Source: Oxalobacteraceae bacterium (lineage in GTDB: Bacteria > Pseudomonadota > Gammaproteobacteria > Burkholderiales > Burkholderiaceae_D). Taken from it: a DNA stretch of 26,917 nucleotides. The notes under the pieces were generated by a model that saw nothing but the letters and a program-made list of their open reading frames with translations, was not told the DNA's origin and did not search any database. Below are positions 9,339 to 26,547 of this stretch, piece by piece (position 1 is the stretch's first letter; each line of letters begins with the position of its first letter). The stretch is from assembly GCA_027486615.1 (NCBI GenBank), contig JAIXOW010000245.1, forward strand, positions 1-26,917. Direction: 5' to 3'. A program made the translations under genes and the position numbers.

Positions 9339-9355
9339 AGTCTAGTTACTGGGCG
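9339..9355 (+). repeat. 17-nt hairpin palindrome, copy 1 (degenerate)
   Basis: aGTCTAGTTACTGGgCG lies 27 nt after the stop of 8917..9312. Confidence 0.5.
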
Positions 9356-9512
9356 CTTGTTGATTGTTTAATGATGAGTTAATTATTTATATAAATTTTG
9401 CAATCATTGCGACTTAGTTTCTGAACATTTTCCGATATCATAATAAATGTATTAATAATTAGCTCCTTTTTAATTACAGATAAATTTAAAAATTTTTATT
9501 AGGAATCAAATC

Positions 9513-9860
9513 ATGTTTGCAGAATTAATAGACAAACTTATTGATGAATACAATTCTGACCCAAGAAATAAAATCTTTATCAATGAAGAAATTTTATTGG
9601 CTTCAGCAAAAGAAGAAACTGGTAATGATGTTTCTACTGACCAATTACGAAGTGCAATAAAAAATTTCCTATCTGGCGAAATGGAAGATGACGATTATTC
9701 CATTTATGACGGTGCTATCTATGCATGTGCGGTTGCCTCAAATAATTGCTTTGGTAATCCCGAAGAACATGAAGATGATGACGACTACAGCGTAGATTAT
9801 GAAATTGATTGGATTGAAAGTGACGACGGTTCATTTTGTGCCGAGATTCGTCCGTCTTAA
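9513..9860 (+). CDS. very acidic small hypothetical protein
   Basis: 115 aa rich in D/E (EDDDY and EHEDDDDY runs), with a GGA Shine-Dalgarno-like sequence upstream. Confidence 0.45.
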   Translation: MFAELIDKLIDEYNSDPRNKIFINEEILLASAKEETGNDVSTDQLRSAIKNFLSGEMEDDDYSIYDGAIYACAVASNNCFGNPEEHEDDDDYSVDYEIDWIESDDGSFCAEIRPS

Positions 9861-9990
9861 CCAATGTGCGATTTATCGTTTTAAACGACAAAGGGGGCAC
9901 GCTAATCAGGATTGAGTATCGCCACTATAAGGATTTAATGCCTAATAACTGTCTGGACTTTTAGCAGGGTGAGCTAATTGGTGATGTGAC

Positions 9991-10020
9991 AAAAAAAAGA
10001 CTGTCTAGGCAGTCTTTTTT
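9991..10020. terminator. bidirectional rho-independent terminator
   Basis: A8-GACTG-TCTAGG-CAGTC-T6. Confidence 0.6.
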
Positions 10021-10027
10021 CATATCT

Positions 10028-10054
10028 TAGAGGCACAAGGCGAAATCGAACCGG
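10028..10054 (-). repeat. decayed tRNA-3'-end-like remnant (d)
   Basis: ATATCTTAGAGGCACAAGGCGAAATCGAACCGG shares GGCACAAGG with remnant (c). Confidence 0.45.
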
Positions 10055-10167
10055 TTTTCGGAAACTCCAACTTTTGAGAGAATGGAGCCATTAATAATAC
10101 GAATAAACTTTACCTGAAGTCTGGGATCGCGCAATACGACTGGAGCAGGAAGACTAAGTAAGCCCTC

Positions 10168-10671
10168 ATGATCGAGCTTAAATCATTGAACAAAGACCAT
10201 ATGGCTGATGTCCTGCGAATTCAGGAACACTGCTATACCGAGATAGAGCCTGAATCGCTCGAGTCACTTCAGGCGAAGATTTTGTCGTCGCCTAGTACTT
10301 GCCTGATCGCTGAATCCTGCGAAGGACCGGTTGGGTATCTGATTGCGGTACCCATTATTTATCCTCACTTACCAGCTTTAAACTCTCCAACTTTTGAGAT
10401 TTTAGAAGGTGCAGATACGCTCTACATCCACGATCTTGCCGTTGTGAGTGCCGGACGAGGGAAAGGTGTAGCTCAGGAGTTGATGCGTGCTTCAATCAAT
10501 GCCGCGAAAAGCAAGGGACTATCGCATGCCTGCCTAGTAGCGATTCAAAGCTCACAAAAATTCTGGGAACAGTTCAGATTTGAGGTGGTGGCGGAACCGG
10601 CCAAAGAGCTTATGCCCAAGCTGGCGAGTTATGGCGCCAGTGCACAGCTTATGCGCGCTTCGAAAATATGA
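10168..10671 (+). CDS. GNAT family N-acetyltransferase
   Basis: The acetyl-CoA motif IHDLAVVSAGRGKGVAQELM is present. GC is about 50%, higher than the flanks. Confidence 0.8.
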   Translation: MIELKSLNKDHMADVLRIQEHCYTEIEPESLESLQAKILSSPSTCLIAESCEGPVGYLIAVPIIYPHLPALNSPTFEILEGADTLYIHDLAVVSAGRGKGVAQELMRASINAAKSKGLSHACLVAIQSSQKFWEQFRFEVVAEPAKELMPKLASYGASAQLMRASKI

Positions 10672-10802
10672 GCTTGGCTTCTGACAGAACTTTGTGGCGG
10701 AAACTATCGGGTGCGGTGAAGTTGTGGGACAGTTATGGAGCGGCTCAGGCGCTAAAATAAAAACGCCAAGCAGAGTAGCTTGGCGCGCTATGCCAATGTT
10801 CT

Positions 10803-10836
10803 TGGAGGCTAGGGGCGGAATCGAGCCGCGCTGATG
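10803..10836 (-). repeat. decayed tRNA-3'-end-like remnant (e)
   Basis: TTCTTGGAGGCTAGGGGCGGAATCGAGCCGCG. Its reverse complement reads like a T-arm plus acceptor plus CCA. Confidence 0.5.
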
Positions 10837-10898
10837 ATGCCTGATCCTAGGCCTAATCGGTAGATTTAAATGATGAATATCATTTTGGTTTTTTAGAA

Positions 10899-11993
10899 TT
10901 AAGGAACTATGACAGTGAAAAGATAAACTGCAAAGATTACCAAATGGACTGTACCCTGCATGATAGTAGTACGTCCTGTACCTAAAGAAATTGATGCTAC
11001 AAGTAGTGATAGAAGCAAAAGTACAGTTGATTTAGCATCGATACCTAGTGAGAGGGTTAGTCCGTACATTAAAGAAACAATTGCAACAGCAGGAATCGTC
11101 AATCCAATACTAGCCAATGCTGAACCTAGCGCTAGATTAAGGCTAGTTTGTAATCGATTGGCTCGCGCTGCTTGGTAAGCAGCAATACTTTCGGGTAGCA
11201 AAACTACCGTGGCAATGATAACGCCAACAAGTGATTTTGGCGCACCAACACTTGCTATAAAACTTTCTAAAGTGGGGGAGAGAGCTTTAGCTAACAACAC
11301 TACCGCAACTAGGCATGCAAGCATAAGAACGGCGCTGAGTTGAGTCATCTTTTTTGTTGGCGGAGGTGCGTGAACTGTTTCATCTGCCACCTCAGTTATT
11401 GGTAGAAAATAGTCTCTATGTCGTACAGTCTGAACTAAGATGAAAGTAGCATAAAGTATGAATGAGACAATTGCGATAAACGATAATTGACTGCTACTGT
11501 AAAAAGGACCTTGGGTAGTTGTTGTGTAATTGGGTAGGACTAGGGTGAGAACTGAAATCGCAGCCAAGGTCGCTAATGAAGCAGATACACCAAGTAAGCC
11601 AAAAGATTGTTCTAGATGCCGACTTGCGCCACTTAGCAAACAAATCCCAACCAAGCCATTAAGTATGATCATCACTGATGCAAAAACCGTATCTCGAGCT
11701 AAACTGCTTTCGGATTCACCTCCAGCAATCATAAGCGATACGATAAGCGCAACTTCGATTGCAGTGACAGCAAGTGCAAGTACCAATGTACCGTAAGGCT
11801 CGCCAACCTTATGAGCTACCACCTCTGCATGAAATACTGCAGCCAGAATACTAGCAATTAGGCTAGCTATTAGTAGAAACTTAAATACGCTACTGAGTGT
11901 GAATTCGCTGGCAGTTAATAAGAGTCCCAAAAATAACCAAGCCACAATTGGGGATAATATTGTCCATGTAGGTAATCGATAAGATAATTTCAT
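10899..11993 (-). CDS. CaCA family calcium/cation:proton antiporter (ChaA-like)
   Basis: 364 aa with about 10-11 TM segments and a GEPYGTLVLALAVTAIEVALIVSLM alpha-repeat-like motif. Confidence 0.8.
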   Translation of the reverse strand: MKLSYRLPTWTILSPIVAWLFLGLLLTASEFTLSSVFKFLLIASLIASILAAVFHAEVVAHKVGEPYGTLVLALAVTAIEVALIVSLMIAGGESESSLARDTVFASVMIILNGLVGICLLSGASRHLEQSFGLLGVSASLATLAAISVLTLVLPNYTTTTQGPFYSSSQLSFIAIVSFILYATFILVQTVRHRDYFLPITEVADETVHAPPPTKKMTQLSAVLMLACLVAVVLLAKALSPTLESFIASVGAPKSLVGVIIATVVLLPESIAAYQAARANRLQTSLNLALGSALASIGLTIPAVAIVSLMYGLTLSLGIDAKSTVLLLLSLLVASISLGTGRTTIMQGTVHLVIFAVYLFTVIVP

Positions 11994-12071
11994 GTATTAA
12001 TTTTATATCAGTCTTAGCTTAAATTTTTGAATAAGTGAACATATAAAAATCTAATATTTGAGCATTCATTC

Positions 12072-12088
12072 CGCCTAGTTACTGGACG
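12072..12088 (+). repeat. 17-nt hairpin palindrome, copy 2
   Basis: CGCCTAGTTACTGGACG in the divergent intergenic region. Confidence 0.6.
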
Positions 12089-12127
12089 CGATAATCGATA
12101 GAATCAGCTTAATGTTAGGACCAATTA

Positions 12128-12475: not shown

Positions 12476-12597
12476 GACATTCAAAGTAATTTTATAGAGC
12501 TTAAGTTATAAAGTTACTTACTGATTTTTGAATTAGATATCGTCTCTTAACGAGATGCTTCCAAGTCTCAATTTCTCTATTGCGGACTTTGCCTACT

Positions 12598-12621
12598 TGG
12601 TGGCTCTAGAGGTAATTGAAC
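12598..12621 (-). repeat. decayed tRNA-3'-end-like remnant (f)
   Basis: CTACTTGGTGGCTCTAGAGGTAATTGAAC. Confidence 0.4.
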
Positions 12622-12632
12622 TAAATTAAGAA

Positions 12633-12916
12633 TTTACTGATCTCAATCTATCTCATCATTGTTCAAAAGCGTAACTTATATCTTGCTCTTGTAGACGTAA
12701 AGATGAATGAGAATATTTCAAAAAATTTTCTTTATGCCTTCTGTAATACAAAAGTCCTTCTTTGATGCTTGCTACTGTTGCGCCTTGTTCTAGCATTTTG
12801 TCCCACAAGTTCCAATCCTCTTGAGGATGAACGCCATCTTCATATCTTTTTTTGTAGCCAATTTTTTGTCCAAAATCTGTACGGTACATCATGGATCCAT
12901 GATGCTGGCCTTGGCG
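12633..12916. repeat. direct repeat copy A (3' part of the GT2 gene plus 23 nt downstream)
   Basis: Collinear with 26634-26917 with no indels. I count about 13 mismatches in 284 positions by eye. Confidence 0.9.
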
Positions 12917-13330
12917 ATTCCAATACAAGTCACCTTTATAAGGGCGCGTCTCACCAGGCACTCTCGTTAAGATTTCTTCCTTTAATTCACCAGTTACAAC
13001 AATGTCGTAGGTGACGATATCGGTGCTGGCATTAGAAAGTAATTCAATTGCATCTGAACGCAACCAATTATCAGCGCCTATGAAAAGCACATACTCTGTA
13101 TCCACCTTAGACAGCATGTTGTGAAAGTTATCTACAACGCCCAAATTTTTTTGTCTGAAAATGTATTCAATATCTGGATATAGACTTGGTAGGTGGCTGC
13201 AATCTAAACCTCCGTCATCGACGAATAAAATTCTTGAGGGGAGGGTTGATTGAGATAGCAATGACTCTATGCAATGCGCTGCAAGATGTCCGTATCTATA
13301 AGAGGCGATGATGACTGTAATCATATTCAT
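12656..13330 (-). CDS. family 2 glycosyltransferase
   Basis: [27 protein letters not shown]...FVDDG is the GT2 N-terminal pattern. The ORF-track start at 13375 is an alternative. Confidence 0.8.
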
Positions 13331-13406
13331 TGGCACGAGAGCATGAGGGCATAAGAAAACGACTTTGCCGCTCATTGGAGCTCTTTTGGCAACTTTTCAT
13401 CGCAAT

Positions 13407-13432
13407 AAAAAAACCACCCGAAGGTGGTTTTA
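13407..13432. terminator. bidirectional terminator hairpin (ACCACC-CGAA-GGTGGT)
   Basis: A-run, 6-bp GC stem with GNRA-like loop, then a T-run. The same unit recurs at 26565 and a variant at 25555. Confidence 0.6.
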
Positions 13433-13440
13433 TTACATCT

Positions 13441-13485
13441 TGGTGGCCCGGGGCGGAATCGAACCACCGACACAAGGATTTTCAA
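13441..13485 (-). pseudogene. tRNA-Phe(GAA) 3' fragment (anticodon loop to CCA), likely an att-site remnant
   Basis: Reverse complement is TTGAAAATCCTTGTGTCGGTGGTTCGATTCCGCCCCGGGCCACCA, giving an intact T-arm, acceptor 3' strand and CCA. The sequence where the 5' half should be (13486-13516) is unrelated. Confidence 0.75.
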
Positions 13486-13629
13486 CTCTGTTAATAGACT
13501 GATAACTATAATTAATTCAGTGCGATAACTTGCCGTGAATTTGCTGTCCTATCTACAATGCACCAACTGGTACGCTCAGGATCGCACTGGCGATGCCCTC
13601 ACTTAAGCACCTATCTCAGCGGGTTCAAG

Positions 13630-13646
13630 CGTCCAGTTACTGGACG
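13630..13646. repeat. 17-nt hairpin palindrome, copy 3 (perfect, C-G at the variable pair)
   Basis: CGTCCAGTTACTGGACG. Confidence 0.7.
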
Positions 13647-13701
13647 GTGACCGACTCAAGGATTCCTTCTCCTTGGGTTCGTGGACTTTGCTATGGCGCA
13701 C

Positions 13702-13718
13702 CGTCTAGTTGCTGGACG
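13702..13718 (+). repeat. 17-nt hairpin palindrome, copy 4 (TTG loop)
   Basis: CGTCTAGTTGCTGGACG. Confidence 0.7.
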
Positions 13719-13963
13719 ATGAAGTAGGGAAAGGCTGGTCATCTTGCGGCACTTACGTATTGAGCAGCGGAGTCAATTAATAGTGTTGCCTCAATGCAGT
13801 TCTTGAAACTTTTAGTTGTATGGATGACCCAGGGTAGCCTATGCTTATCATTATAAAGAAAGTATGCAGAGCTGAATTAGTGAGTCGTCTATAGTTTATG
13901 TGGCAAGTTCGCCAGACTGGGCAATAAAGTCAAAGTAGAAAAAAAGAAAAAAAACGCAATTAC

Positions 13964-14731
13964 ATGACTAAGAAAATTATTGAACCTTCAGAGTACACAC
14001 GCCCACCAATTACTGAGGCTGTAATTGAGATTGTCTTCGCAGGAGAAGTAAAAAATGATGTCGTAAATAAAGTCTCGAAAAAATTCAAAAAATACTATAC
14101 AAACGACATACCAGTAACTCAATATGATGTTCGAGTGGATGTGCAGCCAAGTACAGCTGGGGGGGCGACAGCAAATCTAAAAAAAGAAAAAAAGGGGCAG
14201 CGTTTATCGACCTCGGATGAGACAGAAATATTGGTAATATGGCCGAATTCAATTTCTGTCTCCCAAATTGCCCCATATAAAGGTTGGGATATATTTCACA
14301 AAAGATTCGCTAGAGATTTTAAACTTCTTAAAAAAGAAGTGGGTATACGAGAGATAAAGCGAATTGGAGTTCGCTATATCAATAGAATTGATATTCCGGC
14401 AGTCGAGCCAATAGTTGAGCACGAAGAATATATAAATATTTTCCCCAAGCTGCCAGATAATTTGACCCCACTTACAGCCTATATGGTGCAAGCCGAACTT
14501 CAGCTGCTTGATGTAGGTGCAAACTTGCGTATCAATTCCTCCGCTGTACCTTCGCCGATAGCTGATCATGCATCTTTTGTTATTGACTTAGATTTTTATC
14601 GAATCCACGATATGCCGAGTAGTGATAAAAAATTAAATGAATATTTAAATCTCATAAGAGAAAAAAAGAACGAAATATTTGAATCTTTGGTGAAGGACAA
14701 AGCTCGAGGATTGTTTAAGAACGAGAAATAA
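13964..14731 (+). CDS. hypothetical protein, TIGR04255-like (recall-based)
   Basis: 255 aa. The N-terminal YTRPPITEAVIEIVF resembles the N-terminal hallmark of the TIGR04255 family as I remember it. First gene of a tightly packed operon. Confidence 0.55.
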   Translation: MTKKIIEPSEYTRPPITEAVIEIVFAGEVKNDVVNKVSKKFKKYYTNDIPVTQYDVRVDVQPSTAGGATANLKKEKKGQRLSTSDETEILVIWPNSISVSQIAPYKGWDIFHKRFARDFKLLKKEVGIREIKRIGVRYINRIDIPAVEPIVEHEEYINIFPKLPDNLTPLTAYMVQAELQLLDVGANLRINSSAVPSPIADHASFVIDLDFYRIHDMPSSDKKLNEYLNLIREKKNEIFESLVKDKARGLFKNEK

Positions 14732-15883: not shown

Positions 15884-16243
15884 ATGCGTTTTTACGAATT
15901 CGCCTCACAACCCAGACCAGTCCTGAAGATCAGCCAGCAGCAAGCTGCGAATCAAAGCAACAAACTACCCACGCCCTTCCCAACAAATAAACAACCAACT
16001 CCCGCACCAGCATCAATTAATGTCTATCCAGAAGAATGGCAGCATAAGTGGGTACAAAAATATCTAGCTGCAAAGATAGCCCGTAACGCACAGACCATTA
16101 AGCCAACTGAAGAAGATATAGTGCGGGCACAGATGATGTATGCAGATGCTAAACGTAAAGCTGATCAAGAGTACGAAGAAGTAAATGGAAAGTCAGACGA
16201 AGAATCTGGCTGGCAAGGTGAACATCGTTGGGTCAAGCGATAA
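15884..16243 (+). CDS. hypothetical P/Q-rich then charged small protein
   Basis: 119-aa ORF with a strong AAGGAG Shine-Dalgarno sequence 6 nt upstream of the ATG. Confidence 0.5.
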   Translation: MRFYEFASQPRPVLKISQQQAANQSNKLPTPFPTNKQPTPAPASINVYPEEWQHKWVQKYLAAKIARNAQTIKPTEEDIVRAQMMYADAKRKADQEYEEVNGKSDEESGWQGEHRWVKR

Positions 16244-16250
16244 ATTCAAA

Positions 16251-16277
16251 CTCAGCGTCCAGCAACTAGACGCTGAG
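16251..16277 (-). repeat. 17-nt hairpin palindrome, copy 5 (reverse orientation, TTG loop, extended to a 12-bp stem)
   Basis: CTCAGCGTCCAGCAACTAGACGCTGAG between convergent stops. Confidence 0.75.
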
Positions 16278-16290: not shown

Positions 16291-16731
16291 CTACTTCTTG
16301 AAACCGGACTTCAATCCTGCGGAAGCAGTTTCAATCTGTGCATCTAACTCACCAGCTTCTACTGCTCGTTTAATCGTCTCTAGCGCAACGACTAAATCAT
16401 CTGCACTGGCTACTTCAACACTAGGCTTGCCCTTTGCTAGTTCTAGCGTCCAGCTTCCATATCTAATTGATACACAGACTTTGCCATTTTCAGTAACAAA
16501 CCACCAAGGACGTATACGTTTGGGCATTTCTACTTGTTTACGCAAACCAGTGTCTCTATCTTTAACAGAACGAAATCGAGTAACAACAAATGGCTGTCCG
16601 TTTATTTGACTTCTAGCTAACTGTATCTGCTCCCACAGTTTGCTGCTTAATTTATTTCTCCGAAGTTGGATAGTGGGCATCTGCTGTGGCTTTTTTATAG
16701 CTACTAATTTCAACGTACTCAGTGTGCTCAT
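16291..16731 (-). CDS. conserved hypothetical island protein (DUF6641-like, recall-based)
   Basis: 146 aa with RPWWF...GK..VSIRYGS..LELAKGK...AGELD. I associate this pattern with genomic-island proteins. Confidence 0.5.
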   Translation of the reverse strand: MSTLSTLKLVAIKKPQQMPTIQLRRNKLSSKLWEQIQLARSQINGQPFVVTRFRSVKDRDTGLRKQVEMPKRIRPWWFVTENGKVCVSIRYGSWTLELAKGKPSVEVASADDLVVALETIKRAVEAGELDAQIETASAGLKSGFKK

Positions 16732-17134: not shown

Positions 17135-17605
17135 ATGACAATCATCACAGAACGAGAAATAGCAGTAAGAGGATTTAATAATGAACGCATCAATACCAGC
17201 TTTGGCAAGGGATTATTTCGTAGAGCTATCTATAACTGCTCTGTTGAGCTACGAGACCCTAATGAAAAATACTTAATTGATCTCTATGACTTCGCTCACT
17301 GGCAGCATCAAGCAAGAACAGACTTCCAAATCGACATAGTTAGAAAGATGGCAAATGAAGGTGCTGAAGATGAAAGTGACTTACTTTTGTCTTGGATACA
17401 GCACTACAACCCATTAAGTAAAACCAAAACACCAGTAGAGGGCTACTGCATCTATTTACTCTCTTCCAGAGAGTTGTATGTAGAAATCAATGACCCAGTA
17501 AATAATACCATCGGGGATTGGTCGTTGCGAGTTCAGCAATGTAAAACTGAAGGAGTTGGCAAACCTGTTTTTATTGCAACGAATGTAGATTTGGGTAAGT
17601 GGTAA
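17135..17605 (+). CDS. hypothetical protein
   Basis: 156-aa ORF with an AAGGAAA Shine-Dalgarno sequence, divergent from 16291..16731. Confidence 0.5.
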   Translation: MTIITEREIAVRGFNNERINTSFGKGLFRRAIYNCSVELRDPNEKYLIDLYDFAHWQHQARTDFQIDIVRKMANEGAEDESDLLLSWIQHYNPLSKTKTPVEGYCIYLLSSRELYVEINDPVNNTIGDWSLRVQQCKTEGVGKPVFIATNVDLGKW

Positions 17606-17650: not shown

Positions 17651-17724
17651 AAGCCCTACAGTAAGCGCAAATTAAAAATACAACGTCTAGTTGCTGGACG
17701 CTGCAATAAACGCTTGTAGGGCTT
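17651..17724 (+). repeat. nested hairpin: outer stem AAGCCCTACA..AGCG/CGCT.TGTAGGGCTT enclosing palindrome copy 6 (17684-17700, TTG loop)
   Basis: Both stems were read directly. The inner core is CGTCTAGTTGCTGGACG. Confidence 0.65.
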
Positions 17725-17885: not shown

Positions 17886-17917
17886 CTGCATAAGAAAATT
17901 GTACTTTTCTTATGCAG
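17886..17917. repeat. perfect 13-bp inverted repeat with a 6-nt loop
   Basis: CTGCATAAGAAAA-TTGTAC-TTTTCTTATGCAG, 128 nt upstream of the small recombinase start. Confidence 0.7.
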
Positions 17918-18044
17918 ATTATTTAAGTCATTGATTCTTGGAAGATCTCGGCTTTTTACTACCCAATAAAAAAGAGGTCGTCCATTTTGGAAAAAGAAAA
18001 CACAATAAAAGCATGTGTTTTATTTATCTAAAAAGGACAAAAAC

Positions 18045-18611
18045 ATGGCACAAGCTAAAACCCTAACCCAAGCAGAATTTGATCAAGCACTTCGTTATAT
18101 CAGCACGAGAAACTTTGCAATTCGTAATCGCACTTTATTTTTAATTAGTCACTGGTCGGGAATGAGAGTGGGAGAAATCGCAAGTCTCACAATTGCTGAT
18201 GTTGTTAATGCAGATGGCAGCATCAAAGCTGAAATACGCTTAACAGCAGAGCAAACCAAAGGCAGACACCCCAGAACAGTCTATTTGCCACAAAAGCTCA
18301 TAGAAGAAATCCAGTATTACCTACGTCATCGCTGCGTCAATAGCACAAGTGAATCCTTGTTCTATACAGCAAATGGCAAGCCATTTACTGCAAATAGTCT
18401 CTGTCAGTACTTTTTTTGGATGTACAGAAAAGCTGGTATTGCGGGAGCAAGCAGTCACAGTGGACGCAGAAATTTTATTACTTCATTGGCTGCTAAAGGT
18501 ATATCAGTTCGTGTACTTGCAAGTCTTGCAGGACACCGTGATATCTCAGTTACACAAAAGTATATCGACGTATCAGACGATATGAAGCGAGCCGCAGTGG
18601 AATTGGTTTAG
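18045..18611 (+). CDS. small (FimB/FimE-sized) tyrosine recombinase, catalytic domain only
   Basis: GMRVGEIASL (Arg I), HSGRRNF (HxxR) and GHRDISVTQKY (His/Tyr). I start it at ATG 18045, which has an AAGGA Shine-Dalgarno sequence. Confidence 0.85.
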   Translation: MAQAKTLTQAEFDQALRYISTRNFAIRNRTLFLISHWSGMRVGEIASLTIADVVNADGSIKAEIRLTAEQTKGRHPRTVYLPQKLIEEIQYYLRHRCVNSTSESLFYTANGKPFTANSLCQYFFWMYRKAGIAGASSHSGRRNFITSLAAKGISVRVLASLAGHRDISVTQKYIDVSDDMKRAAVELV

Positions 18612-19712: not shown

Positions 19713-20522
19713 ATGGCTAATGCAACAAATACAGTAGTAGTAAAAAACGCAGTTTTCACTCCATCTGCTGCTGATACCACTTTTGCAAATAGCAGCGTCC
19801 AGACTCTGGACGGTTTAGTTCAGCGTCGTAAGCAGTGGGAAGCCACTGACTACAAAAAAGCTAACGAAGGACTTTATGCCTTGTTAGCTGATTGTTTGGA
19901 ATTGTTTCAAAACCAGTTCGTTTCAGCAGATGCTAATGCTCAAAAAACTTTGCGTCTTGAAATAACAGACAAGCTAAAGGCTGATGGAGTAAAGGTACAA
20001 AAAACTACGCCAACATTAACTATGTTTGTACGTTTTGTATTTGGCTCAGATCGTAAACGTGCACATGGCTACGCTTACGTGCTTAAAGCTGCTATTTCGC
20101 AAGGTGTAAGTGCTGCAGACTTGTCTGCATACATTGCTGCTGAAGGCGGCATTGAAGAAGTTAAGCGCAAGATGGTTGTATCTGAAACAGCGCAAGTTAA
20201 TCGCGCCAACTTAGCGTCTGCTAAAGCTGCTGTTGTTAGTGCAGTCGAACAAGCCGCAGTAGCACCTCTGGCACGTATTGCGATGGCAGGTATTACTGGC
20301 AAGTTTGCATTGCTGTTAGCGCAACCTACACCTGATGGCATGGTAAACATCGTTGGTGTTTTACCAGAGGCACAAGATGCTTTAGTGGATGCGCTCATTG
20401 CAAAGATGGCTAAGCGCAAGGTTGACGGCGATGCAGCAGAGGCTGCGCTTAATAAAGAAGCTACTGATTTGATGGCTGGTTCAGTTGCTGTCAATGCACC
20501 TGTCTACGCCAAGCAAGCGTAA
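19713..20522 (+). CDS. hypothetical Ala-rich protein
   Basis: 269 aa with a strong AAGGAG Shine-Dalgarno sequence and about 50% GC. The antisense ORF 20075..20494 is rejected. Confidence 0.55.
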   Translation: MANATNTVVVKNAVFTPSAADTTFANSSVQTLDGLVQRRKQWEATDYKKANEGLYALLADCLELFQNQFVSADANAQKTLRLEITDKLKADGVKVQKTTPTLTMFVRFVFGSDRKRAHGYAYVLKAAISQGVSAADLSAYIAAEGGIEEVKRKMVVSETAQVNRANLASAKAAVVSAVEQAAVAPLARIAMAGITGKFALLLAQPTPDGMVNIVGVLPEAQDALVDALIAKMAKRKVDGDAAEAALNKEATDLMAGSVAVNAPVYAKQA

Positions 20523-20534
20523 TGAAACGTAATT

Positions 20535-20563
20535 GGGGAGAGCTATGTGCTCTCCCTTTTTTT
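20535..20563 (+). terminator. rho-independent terminator/attenuator between 19713..20522 and the ATPase gene
   Basis: GGGAGAGC-TATGT-GCTCTCCC followed by T7. Confidence 0.7.
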
Positions 20564-20590
20564 ATTCAATCATCTCTGAAAGGAATCCTC

Positions 20591-21292
20591 ATGAAAGTCG
20601 AAATTAAATATGCACCACAGTCACTTGGTGATGTTGTGTACACAAGCGCAGCGCAAGATATACGTATTAATGCTTACGCTCAATCTGGGCTTAATGGTCA
20701 CATCATCCTGTGGGGACCGAACGGCACTGGCAAGTCCACAGTAGCAAAGCTTTTACCTAATGCAATCGCAGGCACTCAAGCAATTATCGAGTCTAAAAGT
20801 TTGGAAGATCTTCTAGCTATTAAAGATCTTAAAACGTATTTAATGAGAGAAGCACATTCAGCCAAAGTGGTTTTTGGTGGGAAGTATTTCTTAGTCTATG
20901 ACGAAGCAGATGCTACCAAAGGCAGTATGGCAAAGTTTTGGACTGCAGTTGATTATTGCGGGGATGATCTAATGATGATTCTCACAACCAACAATCCTAT
21001 GTCAATTGCTCAAAGTGTTCGCTCACGCTCGGACGAGATTGAGTTTCCAGCATTAACTCCGCAGCAGTTTTTGTCACGTGCTCAGTACATGCTTAGTGCT
21101 GAAGGCGTCAATCTTCCCAATGCACAAGTTCTGCATTATCTAGTGCAAATTCAGCACACACCTGACTTACGCAAGTACTGCCGAAAGGTAGACGAACTGA
21201 TTTATCTAGTTCAGAACAATTTACCTTTACCGCCTTTTCCTAACGTGGCAGCTAATCAGCCTCAAATGAAAATTGTGGTGGGCAGCAAGTAA
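20591..21292 (+). CDS. AAA+ ATPase, clamp-loader (RFC small subunit/gp44/HolB)-like
   Basis: KYAPQSLGDVV, Walker A GPNGTGKST, Walker B LVYDEAD, sensor-1 TTNN and an SRC-like RSRS. Start set at the Met with an AAGGA Shine-Dalgarno sequence. Confidence 0.75.
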   Translation: MKVEIKYAPQSLGDVVYTSAAQDIRINAYAQSGLNGHIILWGPNGTGKSTVAKLLPNAIAGTQAIIESKSLEDLLAIKDLKTYLMREAHSAKVVFGGKYFLVYDEADATKGSMAKFWTAVDYCGDDLMMILTTNNPMSIAQSVRSRSDEIEFPALTPQQFLSRAQYMLSAEGVNLPNAQVLHYLVQIQHTPDLRKYCRKVDELIYLVQNNLPLPPFPNVAANQPQMKIVVGSK

Positions 21293-21301
21293 CTACAACT
21301 T

Positions 21302-21334
21302 AAATGAACCGTCTAGTAACAGGACGGTTCATTT
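21302..21334 (+). repeat. 17-nt hairpin palindrome, copy 7 (TAA loop, 12-bp extended stem)
   Basis: AAATGAACCGTC-TAGTAACAG-GACGGTTCATTT between convergent stops. It overlaps the integrase stop codon. Confidence 0.75.
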
Positions 21335-22574
21335 ATGCTAGTTTCTCAGCGTTCAGCATAGGCGTTATTTTGCTGTAATGTTTTTCAATCATTCCAATCG
21401 AAGTTCCCATCTGTCGTGCAAGTGTGTGTATATCAACACCACTTGATAGTGCAAAGGTCGCATAAGTGTGACGTAAACTATATAAAGTTCTATTGCGACC
21501 AGCAGTATCTAGTGCTAGACCAGAATCCCGCATTAAAGTTCGAAATACGCCTTCCATTTGATAAGGTGTACCGCCATTAGGATAAGCAAACACGAGTTTA
21601 TCTATTCGAGCGTTAATGACATCATTCAAATCAGTGCAACCCAAATCCTGCCAATCAGCTAATCGCTCTAGCACAGGAATAGTTTGATGTTTAGCGATTA
21701 AATAGCGTGGTCCTGTTTTGCCTGAGACCCACAGACGCAAATATTTTTGTTCACCAGTGTAGTGCCACTGCAAATGCCGCCAGCGCAAAGCTCTAGCTTC
21801 TGTTCCATGTCTAATGCCTGTGTATAACAAGAACTCGACATACGATCGACATAAGCGGCGCATTAAGCGAGACATCTGTAGTCGTCCACCTAATTCCCAA
21901 TTAACCATAAAAGCTAACAATTCATCAATCTCAGATTGTGAAAAAGCTGGGCGGGCTTGACTCTTTTCTCCATCGATGGGTAGATCAGGAAATGCTCTCT
22001 CCGTCGAAATAAGTCCTTGTTTGCGGGCAAGTTTGATTACACGGTTATAGGCACTGGCGTGATTACGCATGGTACTGGCTTTGGGCTCACGTCCCATAAT
22101 CATTTCACGCCATGCTGAAAAATCTTCAATCGTTTCGTCTCTTATATCAACGATAGGTATTTTTCCGAAAAAAGGTATTAGATACTTATTGATTGCGAAG
22201 ATATAGTCTTTATAAGTTATTGGTGCTCGAGAGTTATCTAATGCTCGTCGCATAGCTGCAAGTTCTTCTTGTGCCACCGCACTAAATGTCTTCTTAGAGA
22301 TAGATTCGCCAGCAGCTAGTTGGCTCAGAATCTGGTGCTGAACTTCTATGCCCGCAGTTTTGGCTAAGTCAAGATTGCTTTGGCCAGTACTCGCAGAGTG
22401 CCAATTGCCAGAAGGTAGTTTGAAGCGAACTTGCCATCTGCTACTCGTTGACCGTTTATAGAGAGTTGCTGTGTGGTCAGCCTGAGATGCCGTTAATTCA
22501 ACGGACTTGGAGATGATGTTGAAAAGTGCATTTAGATTTTGCAAAGCAAGCGTCCAGTTACTAGACGCTTGCAT
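21333..22574 (-). CDS. tyrosine-type site-specific integrase
   Basis: C-terminal LYSLRHTYATFAL...GTSIGMIEKHYSK. The N-terminal start is uncertain because the first codons are palindrome copy 8. Confidence 0.9.
   Translation of the reverse strand: MQASSNWTLALQNLNALFNIISKSVELTASQADHTATLYKRSTSSRWQVRFKLPSGNWHSASTGQSNLDLAKTAGIEVQHQILSQLAAGESISKKTFSAVAQEELAAMRRALDNSRAPITYKDYIFAINKYLIPFFGKIPIVDIRDETIEDFSAWREMIMGREPKASTMRNHASAYNRVIKLARKQGLISTERAFPDLPIDGEKSQARPAFSQSEIDELLAFMVNWELGGRLQMSRLMRRLCRSYVEFLLYTGIRHGTEARALRWRHLQWHYTGEQKYLRLWVSGKTGPRYLIAKHQTIPVLERLADWQDLGCTDLNDVINARIDKLVFAYPNGGTPYQMEGVFRTLMRDSGLALDTAGRNRTLYSLRHTYATFALSSGVDIHTLARQMGTSIGMIEKHYSKITPMLNAEKLA
22546..22572 (-). repeat. 17-nt hairpin palindrome, copy 8 (reverse orientation, TAA loop, extended stem)
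   Basis: GCAAGCGTCCAGTTACTAGACGCTTGC. The minus strand reads CGTCTAGTAACTGGACG. Confidence 0.75.
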
Positions 22575-22616: not shown

Positions 22617-23921
22617 TCAATTTCTTCCAATGGCGGTCCGCTTACTCTGAAGTAATTGAATATTCATTTCAGCAGTTAAATTTGATGCGTAAAATTGTTC
22701 AATCATTTGGACAGATGTTCTTGAGTTTCTTGCTAAAGTTAATAAATCTATTCCCTGTCCATAAAGCAAACGAAACATAATTGCTGTGTGTCGTAGGCTA
22801 TAAAGTGATCGACTCTGGCCAAGTGGCCCCGTCTTTAGATTTGATTCAGATAAAATTTTATTGAAGTGAACAGATAGTAGTGGCCCTACGATTTTTCTAT
22901 TTTTGATTTGAGGTAGAAATAAATAATCCTCTTGTGAGGCTAGTCCGATTCTATCCATGTATTTTTTTAACTTTTCATAAACTCGAACCGCAGGTCTTAG
23001 AGTGACAATTTGAGCTTTATGTCTTTTGGTCTCTGGGAGGGTTAATCGTAAGTATGTATTTTCTTGTCTAATTATTTCTACATGCTTATGCTGAATATGT
23101 ATGACATCGCTGGGTCGCATAAAGCCATTGACCATAAATCGAATAATCCAAATCATTTCCTTTGGTACGTTTTGACTTCTAGTGAATGCACCTCCAGCAC
23201 GATTTCTATGAGTGGGTATCGTATTTGCAGTAGATATTTTTGATAGTTTACGGGCAGTTTTTGTTAATAGAAGATATTCTTTAGTAGTAAATCCTCCTCT
23301 TGGAAGAAATTGTTTTCTGATCTTTGGAAATAAAGGTATACGATAAATTAATTCATTTTCTAATGCATAGTGAAGTATTTTCTTTAGAGATTGTAGATGT
23401 TGGGAAACTGAAATTGATCCTAATTGTCTATCACTTAATGTTGTGATTAGATGGTGTATGTCTTTCTGATTTATTTCCTTAATATCTCTATGTCCAAACA
23501 TTGGTAATAAACAGCCATTCACTCGATATCTAAAATTTTTAAAGGTTGTTTCAGATATTTCGCCAAATAATTGTCTTTGGTGTTCAAAGGCGATGACTTT
23601 ATCTGCTATGTCAGTAAATTGTGTGGATTTGCCATCAACAGATCGCTTATCTGTATCGTGTGGTTTATACCGAAAACCTATTAGCTGATTAAAAAAAGAC
23701 TTCGCTCTTTCCTCTGCAATATTCAAATCAACTACTTTTGAAGATTTGGTAATGACGTGGCTACCAAATCTTATATGTATTTGCCAGAAAGGGCTGTTGG
23801 TAACCTGATAAAGTTTAAGTGATTTAGGGTAACCTTCAATTTTATGTCTCGCCGAGCTTACTGATTTCAATATCTCTTGATTTTTAAATGGTATTGAGAG
23901 CGAAGGAGTAGTTGATGGCAT
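22617..23921 (-). CDS. tyrosine-type site-specific integrase (second, tandem)
   Basis: LYSLRHTAIMFRL...SRTSVQMIEQFYAS, with a WQIHIRFG arm-type N-terminus similar to WQVRFKLP in the neighbouring integrase. Confidence 0.9.
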   Translation of the reverse strand: MPSTTPSLSIPFKNQEILKSVSSARHKIEGYPKSLKLYQVTNSPFWQIHIRFGSHVITKSSKVVDLNIAEERAKSFFNQLIGFRYKPHDTDKRSVDGKSTQFTDIADKVIAFEHQRQLFGEISETTFKNFRYRVNGCLLPMFGHRDIKEINQKDIHHLITTLSDRQLGSISVSQHLQSLKKILHYALENELIYRIPLFPKIRKQFLPRGGFTTKEYLLLTKTARKLSKISTANTIPTHRNRAGGAFTRSQNVPKEMIWIIRFMVNGFMRPSDVIHIQHKHVEIIRQENTYLRLTLPETKRHKAQIVTLRPAVRVYEKLKKYMDRIGLASQEDYLFLPQIKNRKIVGPLLSVHFNKILSESNLKTGPLGQSRSLYSLRHTAIMFRLLYGQGIDLLTLARNSRTSVQMIEQFYASNLTAEMNIQLLQSKRTAIGRN

Positions 23922-24162
23922 ATTTATAATCCCTGAAAAAATGGAAAAATAAATAACGATGATTATGTTTTCTTTTTATGTCTTATTTTGTAAAAATATA
24001 CTTCAAATTGCAACCATTTAAATATACAAAAAAATATATTGTCTTTATAAAATTTAGTTAAATATGACTTAAAAGGTTGTAGTGACATGATCAAAAAACT
24101 TTTATTGTTCTCAATATTTTTGTAATGTTTGAAGATAAGCGTCGATTTAAGGGACACCGACA

Positions 24163-24187
24163 ACCTGCTGGGATGGCAGGTTTTTTT
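24163..24187 (+). terminator. orphan plus-strand terminator in the AT-rich gap
   Basis: ACCTGC-TGGGATG-GCAGGT followed by T6-7. No annotated plus-strand gene lies upstream. Confidence 0.5.
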
Positions 24188-24258
24188 ACGTTCGAAATAT
24201 TTGAGCGAGAGATTTAGATTGGCTTCATACGGTGATGTGTAAGCTTTGAATGAGCAAT

Positions 24259-24288
24259 AAAAAAAGCCACTCCGAAGAGTGGCTTTTA
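24259..24288 (-). terminator. porin terminator (bidirectional)
   Basis: AGCCACTC-CGAA-GAGTGGCT flanked by A/T runs, 45 nt beyond the porin stop. Confidence 0.75.
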
Positions 24289-24332
24289 AGTACAACGTTT
24301 CTAAATCAAATCGGTATTAAACCGACTTGAAA

Positions 24333-25412
24333 TTAGAAACCTGTAACGAGACCAACAGCGTAACCTTTGGTGCTGCTTGTAGCATCACCAGCGGTTGCGT
24401 AGATTGGACCAACTGCAGTCTTGTTGCCTTGACCGCCAGTTGCGTAAAGGTATGTTGTACCTTTGCTGTTCAAGTTATATTGCAAACCAATGTTCAGCAT
24501 TGAAGCCTTGGTTGTTGCATTATTTTGAGCATAGCCTAAAGAAGCAATCAAAGTGTCGCTAACTTTTTGAGAAACGATACCGTAAAATACATTTACTTTG
24601 GTTGAAGCAGTAGCGGATGTATTTACGTCATGGCTGATATAACCAGCGCCGAGTGTTGTTGCGCCCATAGCATAGCTACCAGATACAGTCATACTGCTGT
24701 AGTTGGTTGAAGGTGCAGCTGCAGTACCTGCAGTGAATGTGCCGTCACGCTTTTGATAACCAGCGTTGATAGTTGCGTCACCCATTGCATAGCTAGCAGC
24801 ATATGCATTGTACTTGCTGTCATTGGTGTCATTGGTGTTAGAGGTTGAACCTGTAACTTGGCTTAACACTTTAGCTGAGAAACCACCGATACTTGGTGTT
24901 GAGTAAGAAATTGCATTTGGAATAAAAAAGCCAGTTGATGCGTTGGCTGTAGCACCACCTGCACCAGATACGTTTGAGCCAGCTAAGCCCAACGAAGTAA
25001 CGTAGAAAGATTGGTTGTTGGTGATAGCAGAACCACCAATTGCAGCACCGACGAATGGTGTAAATTGCAAACCAGCAGTTACTGTGCCGAATTCACCAGA
25101 CAAGCTAGCGTTAGCTTTACGATTGAAAAAAGGGTTGCCAGCTGCTACACCACCGTTGGCACCGTTGTTGCCTGAGCCGAGGTCATAGCCTAATTCAAAG
25201 TTGGCAGAAGCTTTCATGCCGTTATCTAAGTCTTGGGAAGCATTTAAGCCCATGATGTTACCTGCCCAGCTACCAAAGCCACCAAAAGATGTTTTGCCGC
25301 CGTCAACTTGGCTTACGCCTGCGTCTACTACGCCATATACACTTGCTTGAGCCATTGCTGCGGTCGAAGCTACTAAAGCCAAGACTGCTAATGCAATTTT
25401 AGTATTTCTCAT
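24333..25412 (-). CDS. Gram-negative general porin (Omp32/OmpC-like, Burkholderiales type)
   Basis: Signal peptide ending AMAQA, then SVYGVVDAGV. It is Gly/Ala/Ser/Thr-rich with beta-strand periodicity and a C-terminal ...GLVTGF. Confidence 0.9.
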   Translation of the reverse strand: MRNTKIALAVLALVASTAAMAQASVYGVVDAGVSQVDGGKTSFGGFGSWAGNIMGLNASQDLDNGMKASANFELGYDLGSGNNGANGGVAAGNPFFNRKANASLSGEFGTVTAGLQFTPFVGAAIGGSAITNNQSFYVTSLGLAGSNVSGAGGATANASTGFFIPNAISYSTPSIGGFSAKVLSQVTGSTSNTNDTNDSKYNAYAASYAMGDATINAGYQKRDGTFTAGTAAAPSTNYSSMTVSGSYAMGATTLGAGYISHDVNTSATASTKVNVFYGIVSQKVSDTLIASLGYAQNNATTKASMLNIGLQYNLNSKGTTYLYATGGQGNKTAVGPIYATAGDATSSTKGYAVGLVTGF

Positions 25413-25467
25413 TTTTTAATCTCCAAAATAAGTGACTATGTAAAAAATCACTTATTTGGAAATTCAA

Positions 25468-25488
25468 ACCGTCTAGTTACTGGACGGT
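25468..25488 (+). repeat. 17-nt hairpin palindrome, copy 9
   Basis: ACCGTCTAGTTACTGGACGGT, 58 nt upstream of the porin start codon. Confidence 0.75.
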
Positions 25489-25554
25489 GTAAAAAGTTGT
25501 TCTATTTCTTGAAGAAAAATAATATTTAGATTGATAAAAAAATATATTTCACCA

Positions 25555-25585
25555 AAAACAAAAAACCACCCTGAGGTGGTTTTTG
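25555..25585 (-). terminator. terminator after the T5orf172-like gene
   Basis: ACCACC-CTGA-GGTGGT with flanking A/T runs. Confidence 0.65.
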
Positions 25586-25589
25586 TAGA

Positions 25590-25617
25590 TCTAGACAGCT
25601 CGGGGGGATATCTAATT
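25590..25617 (-). repeat. possible very decayed tRNA-3'-end-like remnant (i)
   Basis: ATCTAGACAGCTCGGGGGGATATCTAAT matches about 18 of 29 positions of ATCTTGGTGGCCCGGGGCGGAATCGAACC by eye. Weak. Confidence 0.25.
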
Positions 25618-25635
25618 TGGCAGTAGATGCTGAAT

Positions 25636-26016
25636 CTATTTTTGAGTTATCTTTCTCAACGTGGTCCACCGCTCTTTTTTAGCCTCTGGCCGAACACCTG
25701 CTAGCTTAGCCGCACTCAGAGCTTTTTCTATTTCTCGCCACTCCAACTTGTGTACCTCAGTTCCACCTAGAAAGGGTATGTCTGCGAGATGAGTGTTACC
25801 CCAAAATACCGATTCAGCCCAATATGGATCTGGAACAAGGTGGTATTCTTTAAGCTCCCATTTCTGACCAGTTTCTTCAACTATGCGACCAGCCGCTTTA
25901 GTGAAATCACGATTGTGCTGAGCCAAACGCTTCATCGGATCCCGAATCGTCACACCAATTTTGTATAAATTCGGATCCGATGGATGAGTCAATACGTATA
26001 TAAATCCTTGTTTCAT
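25636..26016 (-). CDS. T5orf172 / GIY-YIG-like (MUG113) domain protein
   Basis: GFIYVLTHPSDPNLYKIGVTIRDPMKRLAQHN is the typical N-terminal core. Confidence 0.7.
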   Translation of the reverse strand: MKQGFIYVLTHPSDPNLYKIGVTIRDPMKRLAQHNRDFTKAAGRIVEETGQKWELKEYHLVPDPYWAESVFWGNTHLADIPFLGGTEVHKLEWREIEKALSAAKLAGVRPEAKKERWTTLRKITQK

Positions 26017-26118
26017 TTGGCGGCATTAAAATTGAGAGTGGTTTTTCGCTAATGTTAAATCCGTCGAGTACTAGCTTGCTCTTTTCGAATTTATCTTTAA
26101 CTTAAATAGACAATCCAG

Positions 26119-26490
26119 ATGAGAAAAAAACAAATTACACTTCAAGCAAAATTAAAACAAATAGTTCTCGCTATTAATTTTATAGCTTGTCCAATCGCTT
26201 TTGCCTATGATCCTTTAGATTGCCTTAACGATATATCAAAAATCGATCCAAAAATTATTGTTGGATTAGCTGTAAAACTTTGTTCTGGAGCATATTCGCC
26301 AGAACCAGTAAAGTGCTATGAAAAAATCGGTATTATCGACGACGGTATGATCAGAGGAATTGCGATTGACCTTTGTGCTGGTTCTATGGATGCTAATCAA
26401 ACTACTGATTGTTATGTAAAAGCTGGCAAGGAAAAACTCAATAGAGGTTTGGCAGCAACACTTTGTGGCGTAAAAAAGATTGAAAAATAG
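26119..26490 (+). CDS. secreted Cys-repeat protein
   Basis: Signal peptide followed by about 3 repeats of G(L/I)A..LC.G.......CY.K.G. Confidence 0.5.
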   Translation: MRKKQITLQAKLKQIVLAINFIACPIAFAYDPLDCLNDISKIDPKIIVGLAVKLCSGAYSPEPVKCYEKIGIIDDGMIRGIAIDLCAGSMDANQTTDCYVKAGKEKLNRGLAATLCGVKKIEK

Positions 26491-26530
26491 TTGACGCCAA
26501 AATTGAACTGTCTGATCCTACAATTGCCAC

Positions 26531-26547
26531 CGTCTAGTTACTAGACG
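26531..26547. repeat. 17-nt hairpin palindrome, copy 10 (perfect, T-A at the variable pair)
   Basis: CGTCTAGTTACTAGACG, 40 nt after the stop of 26119..26490. Confidence 0.7.

Follow-up and report, generated by a model that had tools for sequence, protein, structure and literature searches.

The 26,917-nt stretch analysed here (the window; contig JAIXOW010000245.1 of an Oxalobacteraceae bacterium) carries a family of palindromes of 17–21 nt. The family is restricted to integrative elements of a single kind, known here from Polynucleobacter, Limnohabitans, Methylophilaceae and Zwartia, and its members stand at nearly all gene boundaries of the island. We read these palindromes as the recombination sites of an integron-like or pdif-like cassette system, an interpretation that we favour while putting its probability a little short of even. 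It builds on strict conservation of the sites across genera, their restriction to a single type of element, the recombinase genes that adjoin them, the homology breakpoints that fall at them, and an inserted segment that is flanked by sites with hybrid arms. The initial annotation of the window had offered, among its options, a hairpin recombination or binding site spread with the accessory DNA; within that option, the evidence favours the recombination site.

A palindrome family restricted to one type of integrative element

Searching the window for the pattern CGTCYAGNNNCTRGACG gave eight exact matches against 0.00 expected from shuffled sequences and, with up to two mismatches allowed, 11 matches against 0.07 expected (shuffle maximum, 2). 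All ten copies in the initial annotation are present, although one listed at 22550 begins at 22551, and an eleventh, at 19796 with the loop ACT, had been missed and lies within the open reading frame (ORF) 19713–20522. The annotation was also right that the first 9.3 kb are free of copies (0 matches in 1–9300, exact or with up to two mismatches) and, apart from the in-gene copy at 19796, that the family is intergenic and confined to accessory DNA. The copies, together with one member of a sister class, are listed below; z values refer to folding as single-stranded DNA, and the genes named are introduced further on.

9339–9355: degenerate copy AGTCTAGTTACTGGGCG, the right end of a 63-nt unit (9293–9355) shared with 25424–25486; no fold found as a single strand
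9874–9890: degenerate member of the sister class GTT, TATCGTTTTAAACGACA, 14 nt after the stop of ORF 9513–9860
12072–12088: copy CGCCTAGTTACTGGACG, in a divergent intergenic region and joined to a partial 63-nt unit; no fold found as a single strand
13630–13646: perfect copy CGTCCAGTTACTGGACG, in a 470-nt non-coding stretch beside a tRNA-Phe 3′ fragment; z −3.7
13702–13718: copy CGTCTAGTTGCTGGACG; weak fold
16256–16272: copy CGTCCAGCAACTAGACG with a 5-bp stem extension, between the convergent ORF 15884–16243 (plus strand) and DUF6641 gene 16291–16731 (minus strand); z −6.4
17684–17700: copy CGTCTAGTTGCTGGACG, 79 nt after ORF 17135–17605 and within a larger inverted repeat, AGCCCTACA...TGTAGGGCT
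19796–19812: copy CGTCCAGACTCTGGACG, inside p269 (19713–20522) and close to its 5′ end, where it encodes VQTLD
21310–21326: hybrid copy CGTCTAGTAACAGGACG, with a standard left arm, a CTG-class right arm and an 8-bp extension, between the convergent AAA and Int413 genes; z −6.4
22551–22567: copy CGTCCAGTTACTAGACG with a 5-bp extension, 50 nt beyond the Int434 stop and immediately past the Int413 ATG; z −6.4
25470–25486: consensus copy CGTCTAGTTACTGGACG, directly upstream, in the minus-strand reading, of a promoter-like TTGAAT-17-TTACAT and the porin Shine–Dalgarno (SD) sequence; z −3.7
26531–26547: perfect copy CGTCTAGTTACTAGACG, 41 nt after ORF 26119–26490 and shortly before a canonical terminator; z −5.0

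A metagenome scan returned at least 120 stretches, mostly from lake metagenomes, and the counts given here for the wider family rest on the matches listed. A genome scan yielded mostly chance singletons in high-GC genomes, with multi-copy loci in Limnohabitans, Polynucleobacter, Methylophilaceae, Zwartia and other Burkholderiaceae. The two scans together contain at least 216 sites with unique contexts and give the consensus AG-CGTCYAGTWACTRGACG-CT. Sites of the standard class form a true 8-1-8 palindrome that spans 17 bp and can be extended to 21 bp. These 17 nt are near-invariant across four bacterial families in which the neighbouring proteins have drifted to 45–60% identity. Loops vary freely in the loci retrieved by protein (that of a small recombinase, smallInt, described below), and the stem is therefore the conserved part.

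The window belongs to a low-GC freshwater betaproteobacterium and represents a flexible island; its closest relatives are lake-metagenome contigs. From 13.5 kb on it holds three tyrosine recombinase genes, the gene of the DUF6641 protein, a gene pair consisting of p269 and an AAA ATPase, and a porin gene. The recombinases and the gene pair are the following:

18015–18611, plus strand: smallInt, a single-domain tyrosine recombinase (Pfam Phage_integrase) of about 188 aa from the conserved start MAQAKTLT, and the candidate enzyme
19713–20522 and 20522–21292, plus strand: p269 and the AAA ATPase, a conserved element gene pair found in 23 loci
21333–22574, minus strand: Int413, a tyrosine recombinase flanked by the inverted sites 21310 and 22551
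22617–23921, minus strand: Int434, a large P4-type tyrosine integrase

These genes recur in the site-bearing loci among the matches listed: smallInt in 31, p269 with AAA in 23, DUF6641 in 20, Int413 in 18 and Int434 in 15. A site lies 7–93 nt past the smallInt stop in about 20 of 31 loci and 13–49 nt past the DUF6641 stop in 12 of 19, and a site occupies the same position at the Int413 gene start in 7 of 11 homologues. Loci retrieved via the smallInt protein share a module of DUF6641, a 155-aa ORF, smallInt, a 250-aa ORF, p269 and AAA, and their sites stay within the element. One such locus (L255; related loci are numbered with the prefix L) has 8 sites in its 12-kb element and 0 in 8.5 kb of flanking core, and three others have 7 (L256), 4 (L260) and 3 (L261), all within the element. 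The core flanks of the element are copy-free in the window, L255 and L260, and two complete chromosomes each have one 8-kb site-bearing stretch among the matches listed.

The palindrome inside p269 recurs at the same place in L006, L030, L061, L068, L113, L255, L257 and L260 and is absent from L040 and L103; in most elements it is perfect and lies 55–130 nt into the coding region (residues VQxLD). It could be a functional site within the gene or the ancestral copy of the family. The p269 protein has no sequence match in Pfam, PHROG, NCBIfam or PDB, and its AlphaFold model (pLDDT 76) consists of helices only, a fold for which nothing matched at E<0.7. We rejected p269 as a HUH/Rep-type hairpin nickase on the lack of such a match and on a model that does not resemble the HUH fold. 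The AAA protein gave only a weak TRIP13-like match in PADLOC.

Three of the window palindromes have a 63-nt unit adjoining one side (9293–9355, 12045–12088 and 25424–25486), and the unit also occurs in L121, L198 and L001 (5736–5846). Its parts, in minus-strand order, are the palindrome, TTGAAT, 17 nt, TTACAT, another small hairpin and an SD sequence. At 25424 it constitutes the porin upstream region, and the other two window copies resemble stranded remnants. Two units lie only about 200 nt apart in L121 with one tRNA-Phe fragment between them, at a place where the window has 16 kb.

Palindromes of the family were also seen on viral contigs. The high-GC phage-like contig IMGVR_UViG_3300013105_000008 (56 kb, GC 0.67; L244, L246, L247 and L249), with which L229, L162 and L179 are grouped, carries at least 13 copies of YGTCCAGTWACTGGACG. 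Most are followed, a few nucleotides on, by the SD-like motif and start codon of the next small gene, an arrangement detailed for two of them, and phmmer found no protein common to this contig and the betaproteobacterial islands. Three related low-GC viral contigs (IMG/VR, GC 0.35–0.37) each hold a single consensus copy, CGTCTAGTTACTGGACG, in the same conserved context (L248 at 9300, L252 at 2345, L253 at 5552).

Base pairing across the wider family

Folding of the window copies as single-stranded DNA was significantly stable for 7 of 11 (z −3.6 or lower), and copies with an inner C.A or A.A fold solely via their flanking extensions. The stem extensions quoted in the initial annotation are present as CTCAG/CTGAG, AAATGAAC/GTTCATTT and GCAAG/CTTGC. 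That annotation had concluded that pairing is under selection, arguing from compensatory change and G.U tolerance at the fifth stem pair and from the observation that copies reading C/A become U.G on the transcript strand. Among 171 loop-oriented sites, the fifth pair is T.G in 73, C-G in 51, C.A in 27 and T-A in 20; our own calculation from these four counts gives a chi-square of about 3.7, leaning against Watson–Crick pairing. When each site is read in the direction of the gene ending there, the counts are 40 for U.G and 30 for C.A. Both arguments fail because the pair-5 counts lack covariation and because C.A is nearly as frequent as U.G; the conclusion itself is upheld by other evidence, namely seven middle-triplet classes and covarying pairs and flanks.

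Part of this evidence comes from the superfamily GTC-N3-TWA-N3′-GAC, in which the middle of the stem is left free. In 618 kb, 81 of its members are fully complementary, where shuffled sequences give 0.05. They fall into seven middle-triplet classes (GTT, 22; TAG, 19; GCG, 15; CAG, 13; CTG, 5; GTG, 4; CTT, 3), and the pairs 1/17, 5/13, 6/12 and 7/11 each occur as two to four Watson–Crick types. At the first flanking position, 82 sites have the pair G:C, 19 have C:G and 13 have T:A, and 116 sites are paired against 75 expected. In an alignment of 59 sites, 87.9% of cells pair against 72.7% after shuffling, and double-change cells number 80 against 30.8, a value reached in 0 of 500 shuffles; because we picked these sequences by hand, the test is supportive and not independent. 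About 30 sites pair a mutated arm with a consensus arm and remain uncompensated, which counts against strict pairing. Taken across these comparisons, selection on base pairing is supported for the wider family GTC-N3-loop-N3′-GAC. The self-complementary classes and covarying flanks may mean that the site acts in an extruded or single-stranded form, as the attC sites of integrons do; alternatively, template switching may be what keeps the sites palindromic.

Clusters or pairs of palindromes of mixed triplet classes also occur with no genes between them (L192, 1101–1460; L073, 1107–1202 and 1960–2055; L188, 5740–5795; L232, 3185–3240 and 5357–5459; L238, 5420–5475). Their spacing is about 39–43 nt and their linkers are AT-rich and end in TCAAG; the L192 cluster had no match in a plasmid collection. 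In the subfamily of the small recombinase with 45% identity, the stop codon is regularly followed by a variant-class hairpin and then by a standard one.

Breakpoints at the sites and a proposed cassette exchange

Comparison of loci at 85% identity or more revealed that internal homology ends cluster at the palindromes: 38 of 352 lie within 12 nt of a site centre, about ten times the chance level of 3.6 (maximum at random, 9), and 63 lie within 30 nt, against 8.9. In the window itself, homology with L121 stops 4 nt past copy 9339, that with L197 stops 19 nt past copy 13630, and that with L198 stops 9 nt past copy 25470. Across a site, 30 of 92 flank clusters are joined to at least two different partner flanks. 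Where two loci share homology on a single side of the site, the half-site that adjoins the shared flank is kept in 16 cases and the far half in 5.

One insertion is clean. Relative to both the window and L198, locus L197 has gained a 456-nt segment with a single small ORF exactly at window site 21310. A site now stands on each side of the segment, the left one combining a CTG-like left arm with a standard right arm and the right one a standard left arm with a CTG-class right arm. Such reciprocal hybrid arms are what a central crossover between a cassette site and a target site would be expected to produce. Breakpoints, this hybrid-arm insertion and flank-linked half-sites are indirect evidence, from sequence comparison, for strand exchange at the sites. 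Several further segments are inverted between loci with one boundary at a site, and the arrangement of copy 17684, inside a larger inverted repeat, recurs at 5288 in the Polynucleobacter locus L040.

Some loci have the look of cassette arrays. L238 reads p269-AAA-site-ORF-site-gene pair-site-gene pair-site-recombinases-site-site, with two recombinase genes at its end, each site 12–18 nt past a stop codon and gene pairs that are toxin–antitoxin-like by size only. In L073, a 96-nt two-hairpin unit stands on both sides of an unannotated gene pair of toxin–antitoxin size. L238 and L073 have co-oriented cassettes that end in sites beside a recombinase, whereas the window and most other loci have genes in both orientations and the orientation of the sites bears no relation to gene direction.

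Of the three recombinases, smallInt aligns over its full length to the FimB/FimE-type invertase model NF007370 and to XerA, XerC and XerD only in the catalytic domain. Across 27 homologues its catalytic residues (R, K, HxxR, H and Y) are conserved, and its family comprises 4,530 metagenome protein clusters. Int413 and Int434 match only generic phage-integrase domains. Int434 probably serves the tRNA-Phe attachment site rather than the palindromes; in L001, a homologue with 86% identity lies inside a stretch of about 17 kb without palindromes. Arms of 7 bp around a 7-bp centre are the layout of tyrosine-recombinase core sites, such as BOB′ of lambda attB; such sites generally have two inverted binding arms on either side of a 6–8-bp crossover region. 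The palindromes share this 7-7-7 layout, in a window with three recombinase genes and a catalytic set conserved in smallInt.

We propose the following reaction. The site is a palindrome of about 21 bp, AG-CGTC-N3-loop-N3′-GACG-CT, with conserved outer arms, a middle triplet that falls into self-complementary classes and a 3-nt centre. A tyrosine recombinase encoded by the element would pair two such sites, as duplex, cruciform or folded single strand, and exchange strands near the centre; the best candidate is the 188-aa smallInt, whose stop codon nearly always has a site just past it, and the alternative is an enzyme of the Int413 type. As the sites are almost symmetric they lack polarity, and the same reaction could therefore insert, excise or invert a segment, which fits the mixed gene orientations. 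Genes or small groups of genes with a site near their 3′ end would behave as cassettes, their order and orientation differing between elements.

Several observations weigh against this proposal. Of about eight indels that distinguish close relatives, just one is bounded by sites on both sides, two have a single site beside them and five have none, and one of the two single-site cases (L229 against L162/L244) belongs to the unrelated high-GC phage contig. Metagenome contig ends are not enriched for sites (8 within 200 nt against 9 expected; KS p = 0.99). Distant plasmid homologues of smallInt (39–45% identity; Legionella and Azospirillum) have no sites nearby, and the link is therefore to the element family and not to the whole enzyme family. 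A duplex recombination site has no need of seven self-complementary triplet classes, and simple cassette boundaries leave the gene-free clusters of five to six mixed-class hairpins unexplained. Rare homologous recombination between identical repeats of 17–21 bp could give the same junctions, and enrichment at 3′ ends and in convergent regions fits a role at transcript 3′ ends equally well.

That last role is the strongest of the alternatives, although we consider it unlikely. The palindromes would act as RNA hairpins at 3′ ends, blocking exonucleases or terminating or insulating transcription, with each cargo gene bringing its own. Placement is its best support. Only 32% of sites fall inside crudely called ORFs, which cover 81% of the DNA; intergenic sites are convergent in 46 cases, tandem in 45 and divergent in 16, against a background of 151, 489 and 149, and the median distance to the upstream stop is 47 nt. 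The initial annotation had reported six copies soon after a stop codon, and with the ORF table we measured 7–79 nt for 9339, 16256, 17684, 21310, 22551 and 26531; the sites of L238, each so close to a stop, fit as well. An RNA role would further accord with the covariation of stem positions and flanks, with the long stem extensions and A/T-rich tails of some copies (for example 21310 and 16256), and with a near-identical reading on both strands, which suits convergent genes.

Against it, structure alone does not call for 17 near-invariant nucleotides across four families. The position matrix of 197 sites has no T-run at +18 to +32, only four window copies (9340, 16256, 19796 and 26531) were flagged as terminator-like, all weakly, and the canonical terminators of the window region have different stems and clear T-tails. 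We therefore rejected an identity as intrinsic terminators, in which a G+C-rich stem runs straight into a T-run, given the missing T-run and weak flags on 4 of 11 window copies. Rfam gave nothing at gathering thresholds over the whole window and only noise at E≤1 over 13300–14000. Moreover, 16 of 107 classified sites are divergent and others lie upstream of genes or inside p269, C.A comes close to U.G in frequency in the transcript orientation, inner mismatches go uncompensated in about 30 sites, hairpin clusters exist without genes, and neither the hybrid arms of L197 nor the flank-linked half-sites are explained. The earlier view that the family is not purely a terminator is borne out. A REP-like element or terminator, which had also been suggested, does not agree with sites limited to one element, the lack of a RAYT, and most copies without a T-tail. 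Copies that are transcribed probably serve as 3′ hairpins as well, a few of them probably as bidirectional terminators.

It is improbable, in our estimate, that the palindromes are duplex sites for a DNA-binding protein encoded by the element, with p269 as the candidate and a roadblock or silencer, partition or origin function. The p269 gene holds a copy of its own, as parB genes hold parS, and most elements conserve this copy in the 5′ part of the gene. Sites of the standard class form a true 8-1-8 palindrome, three window copies lie directly upstream of a −35-like box, and the high-GC phage contig has its copies, at least 13, mostly upstream of an SD-like motif and start codon. Mutated halves, too, nearly always face a consensus half and remain uncompensated (CCG/TAG, 8; CAG/CCG, 7; CCA/TAG, 4; CCG/CCG, 0). 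Seven triplet classes within single arrays would, however, require several specificities per element; loops are free to vary in the loci retrieved by protein, the flanking pairs covary, most sites follow genes instead of standing at promoters, p269 has no recognisable DNA-binding fold, and the phage contig and the islands have no protein in common.

Least probable of all is a selfish REP- or MITE-like repeat that copies itself into hairpin-prone 3′ intergenic DNA by transposition or template switching, with the breakpoints as a by-product: extragenic imperfect palindromes in BIME-like mosaic arrays of mixed types, copies in the loop of a larger pre-existing stem (17684; L040 at 5288), two different short insertions directly beside a site, and perfect stem extensions of up to 20 bp (L159) that could come from template switching speak for it, but neither a HUH/RAYT nor any other transposase was seen in the window or sampled loci, nor a GTAG-type 5′ motif, and the sites occupy one element per genome instead of the whole genome and are common to several genera, whereas REP families are species-specific.

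We thus retain cassette exchange as the preferred reading. In its most specific form, a minimal integron-like system in which a 188-aa recombinase and polarity-free, hairpin-capable sites of 17–23 nt, with compatibility classes defined by the triplet, take up, invert and swap single-gene cassettes among Polynucleobacter, Limnohabitans, Methylophilaceae and their relatives, it is possible but more doubtful than the general reading. This form would provide a mechanism for a gene pool shared between species of abundant lake bacteria. Polynucleobacter, Limnohabitans and 'Ca. Methylopumilus' are streamlined freshwater plankton that diversify mainly via small flexible islands. If cassette exchange holds, they would have a cassette system apart from integrons and tRNA-targeting integrases, one that combines very short sites with a very small enzyme. 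It would bear on gene flow in lakes and offer a possible compact recombination tool. Even as RNA or protein-binding elements, the palindromes would be a handy sequence marker for this element family in metagenomes.

The island setting and comparison with known systems

Between about 4.6 and 13.5 kb the window carries seven or more 3′ fragments of tRNA-Phe(GAA) on the minus strand, with one or two genes between neighbours and a canonical terminator before most fragments. No intact tRNA or tmRNA gene was found in the window. The 47 nt at 13438–13484 match an intact tRNA-Phe of L022 at its 3′ end with 100% identity, and the identity of the window tRNA fragment is 100% to a Burkholderiaceae isolate and 96% to Polynucleobacter. 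The fragments are located as follows:

about 4652–4689, minus strand: tRNA-Phe 3′ fragment
about 6317–6345, minus strand: tRNA-Phe 3′ fragment
about 6978–7015, minus strand: tRNA-Phe 3′ fragment
about 10015–10052, minus strand: tRNA-Phe 3′ fragment
about 10799–10827, minus strand: tRNA-Phe 3′ fragment
about 12596–12619, minus strand: tRNA-Phe 3′ fragment
about 13428–13484, minus strand: tRNA-Phe 3′ fragment
near 25590–25615: degenerate copy of the tRNA-Phe fragment
near 26596–26621: degenerate copy of the tRNA-Phe fragment

Several further features were noted in the window and related loci. The 470-nt GC-rich non-coding stretch at 13485–13963 contains two palindromes; it matched no Rfam family, and its conservation is limited to L197. 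A further GC-rich stretch, an insertion of 218 nt unrelated to the first, lies 3–4 nt after a palindrome in L225 (3235–3454) and L183 (310–532) and is missing from three close relatives. A direct repeat of 291 nt with 95% identity (12626–12916 and 26627–26917) includes the 3′ part of a glycosyltransferase gene and is cut off where the window ends on the right. A 38-nt tandem duplication, also with 95% identity (8060–8135), spans the stop of a CorA-like gene (7133–8095). About 100 nt upstream of smallInt, at 17886–17917, stands the 32-nt inverted repeat CTGCATAAGAAAATTGTACTTTTCTTATGCAG, with a perfect 13-bp stem, a 6-nt loop and a sequence unrelated to the family.

Islands with tRNA-fragment attachment repeats have been described as tycheposons and additive islands (10.1101/2020.12.28.424599; PMC10872708), and the window pattern, that of repeated integration at one tRNA, matches: with its tRNA-Phe fragments and large tyrosine integrase, the locus is itself such an island. 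The palindromes differ from that arrangement in forming a second, separate repeat system in the same island, and neither of the two texts mentions hairpin or palindrome sites. The papers searched on Polynucleobacter or Limnohabitans cassettes or palindromes and the tycheposon and Methylophilaceae island papers likewise mention no such sites.

Two kinds of repeat resemble the palindromes mainly in form. REP and BIME elements are also short extragenic imperfect palindromes that follow stop codons, sometimes in mosaic clusters, and may form hairpins at mRNA 3′ ends; unlike REP or REPIN–RAYT systems, the family described here is not genome-wide, has neither a RAYT nor the GTAG motif, and crosses genera on a mobile element. 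REP copies number in the tens to hundreds over the chromosome of a single species, and REPs flank the associated RAYT gene; among 30 window proteins and 10 from related loci, Pfam detected no Y1_Tnp (RAYT) domain. DNA uptake sequences (DUS/USS) were rejected because the palindromes are absent from the core flanks and are common to four families on one element, whereas uptake sequences are lineage-specific, occur about once per kb throughout a genome and are enriched in core genes; agreement with the Neisseria DUS core (CCGTCT) extends to only 6 of 10 bases.

The lox and FRT variants and the FimB/FimE sites have inverted arms around a short centre, as here, and symmetric centres permit both inversion and excision. 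As in lox and FRT, variant centres would give classes that recombine only with themselves, and smallInt has the size and single-domain layout of FimB and FimE, the reaction here being a proposed one. The palindromes differ from these systems in being many and dispersed where those use one pair, and in a self-complementary middle that those do not need.

Similarities to integrons go further. There, too, a tyrosine recombinase gene stands beside an array of small cassettes, often of toxin–antitoxin size, each ending in a hairpin-capable imperfect inverted repeat in which only the stem base is conserved and the middle varies with compensation, and here one cassette insertion duplicates the site. 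IntI is a protein of about 320 aa with an integron-specific insertion, and attC has the boxes R″-L″...L′-R′, with R′ reading GTTRRRY. The sites here measure 17–23 nt where attC measures 57–141 nt, have no GTTRRRY/RYYYAAC boxes in the position matrix and no evident extrahelical bases, and lack polarity, with cassettes in both orientations. Against the integron-integrase models, smallInt scored 42 bits for TIGR02249 (cut-off 265) and 20.7 bits for NF011946 (435), in the catalytic domain only. Neither an attI site nor a Pc promoter was identified. We rejected membership in the integrons on the low scores with the IntI models and the lack of attC boxes.

The pdif modules of Acinetobacter plasmids share with the islands many short inverted-repeat sites that bound modules of one to a few genes, a module order and orientation that differ between related replicons, and common toxin–antitoxin cargo. 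A pdif site is 28 bp long (11-6-11), resembles dif and is thought to be served by host XerC/XerD, whereas the palindromes are laid out as 7-3-7 (or 7-7-7), have an unrelated sequence and lie in chromosomal islands with their own recombinases. An assignment to pdif/Xer modules was rejected on site length and sequence, by inspection against the published pdif layout. Although the integrase models and attC boxes separate it from integrons, and site length and sequence from pdif modules, the system appears to work most like integron cassettes or pdif modules, with the palindromes as putative cassette boundaries served by a recombinase.

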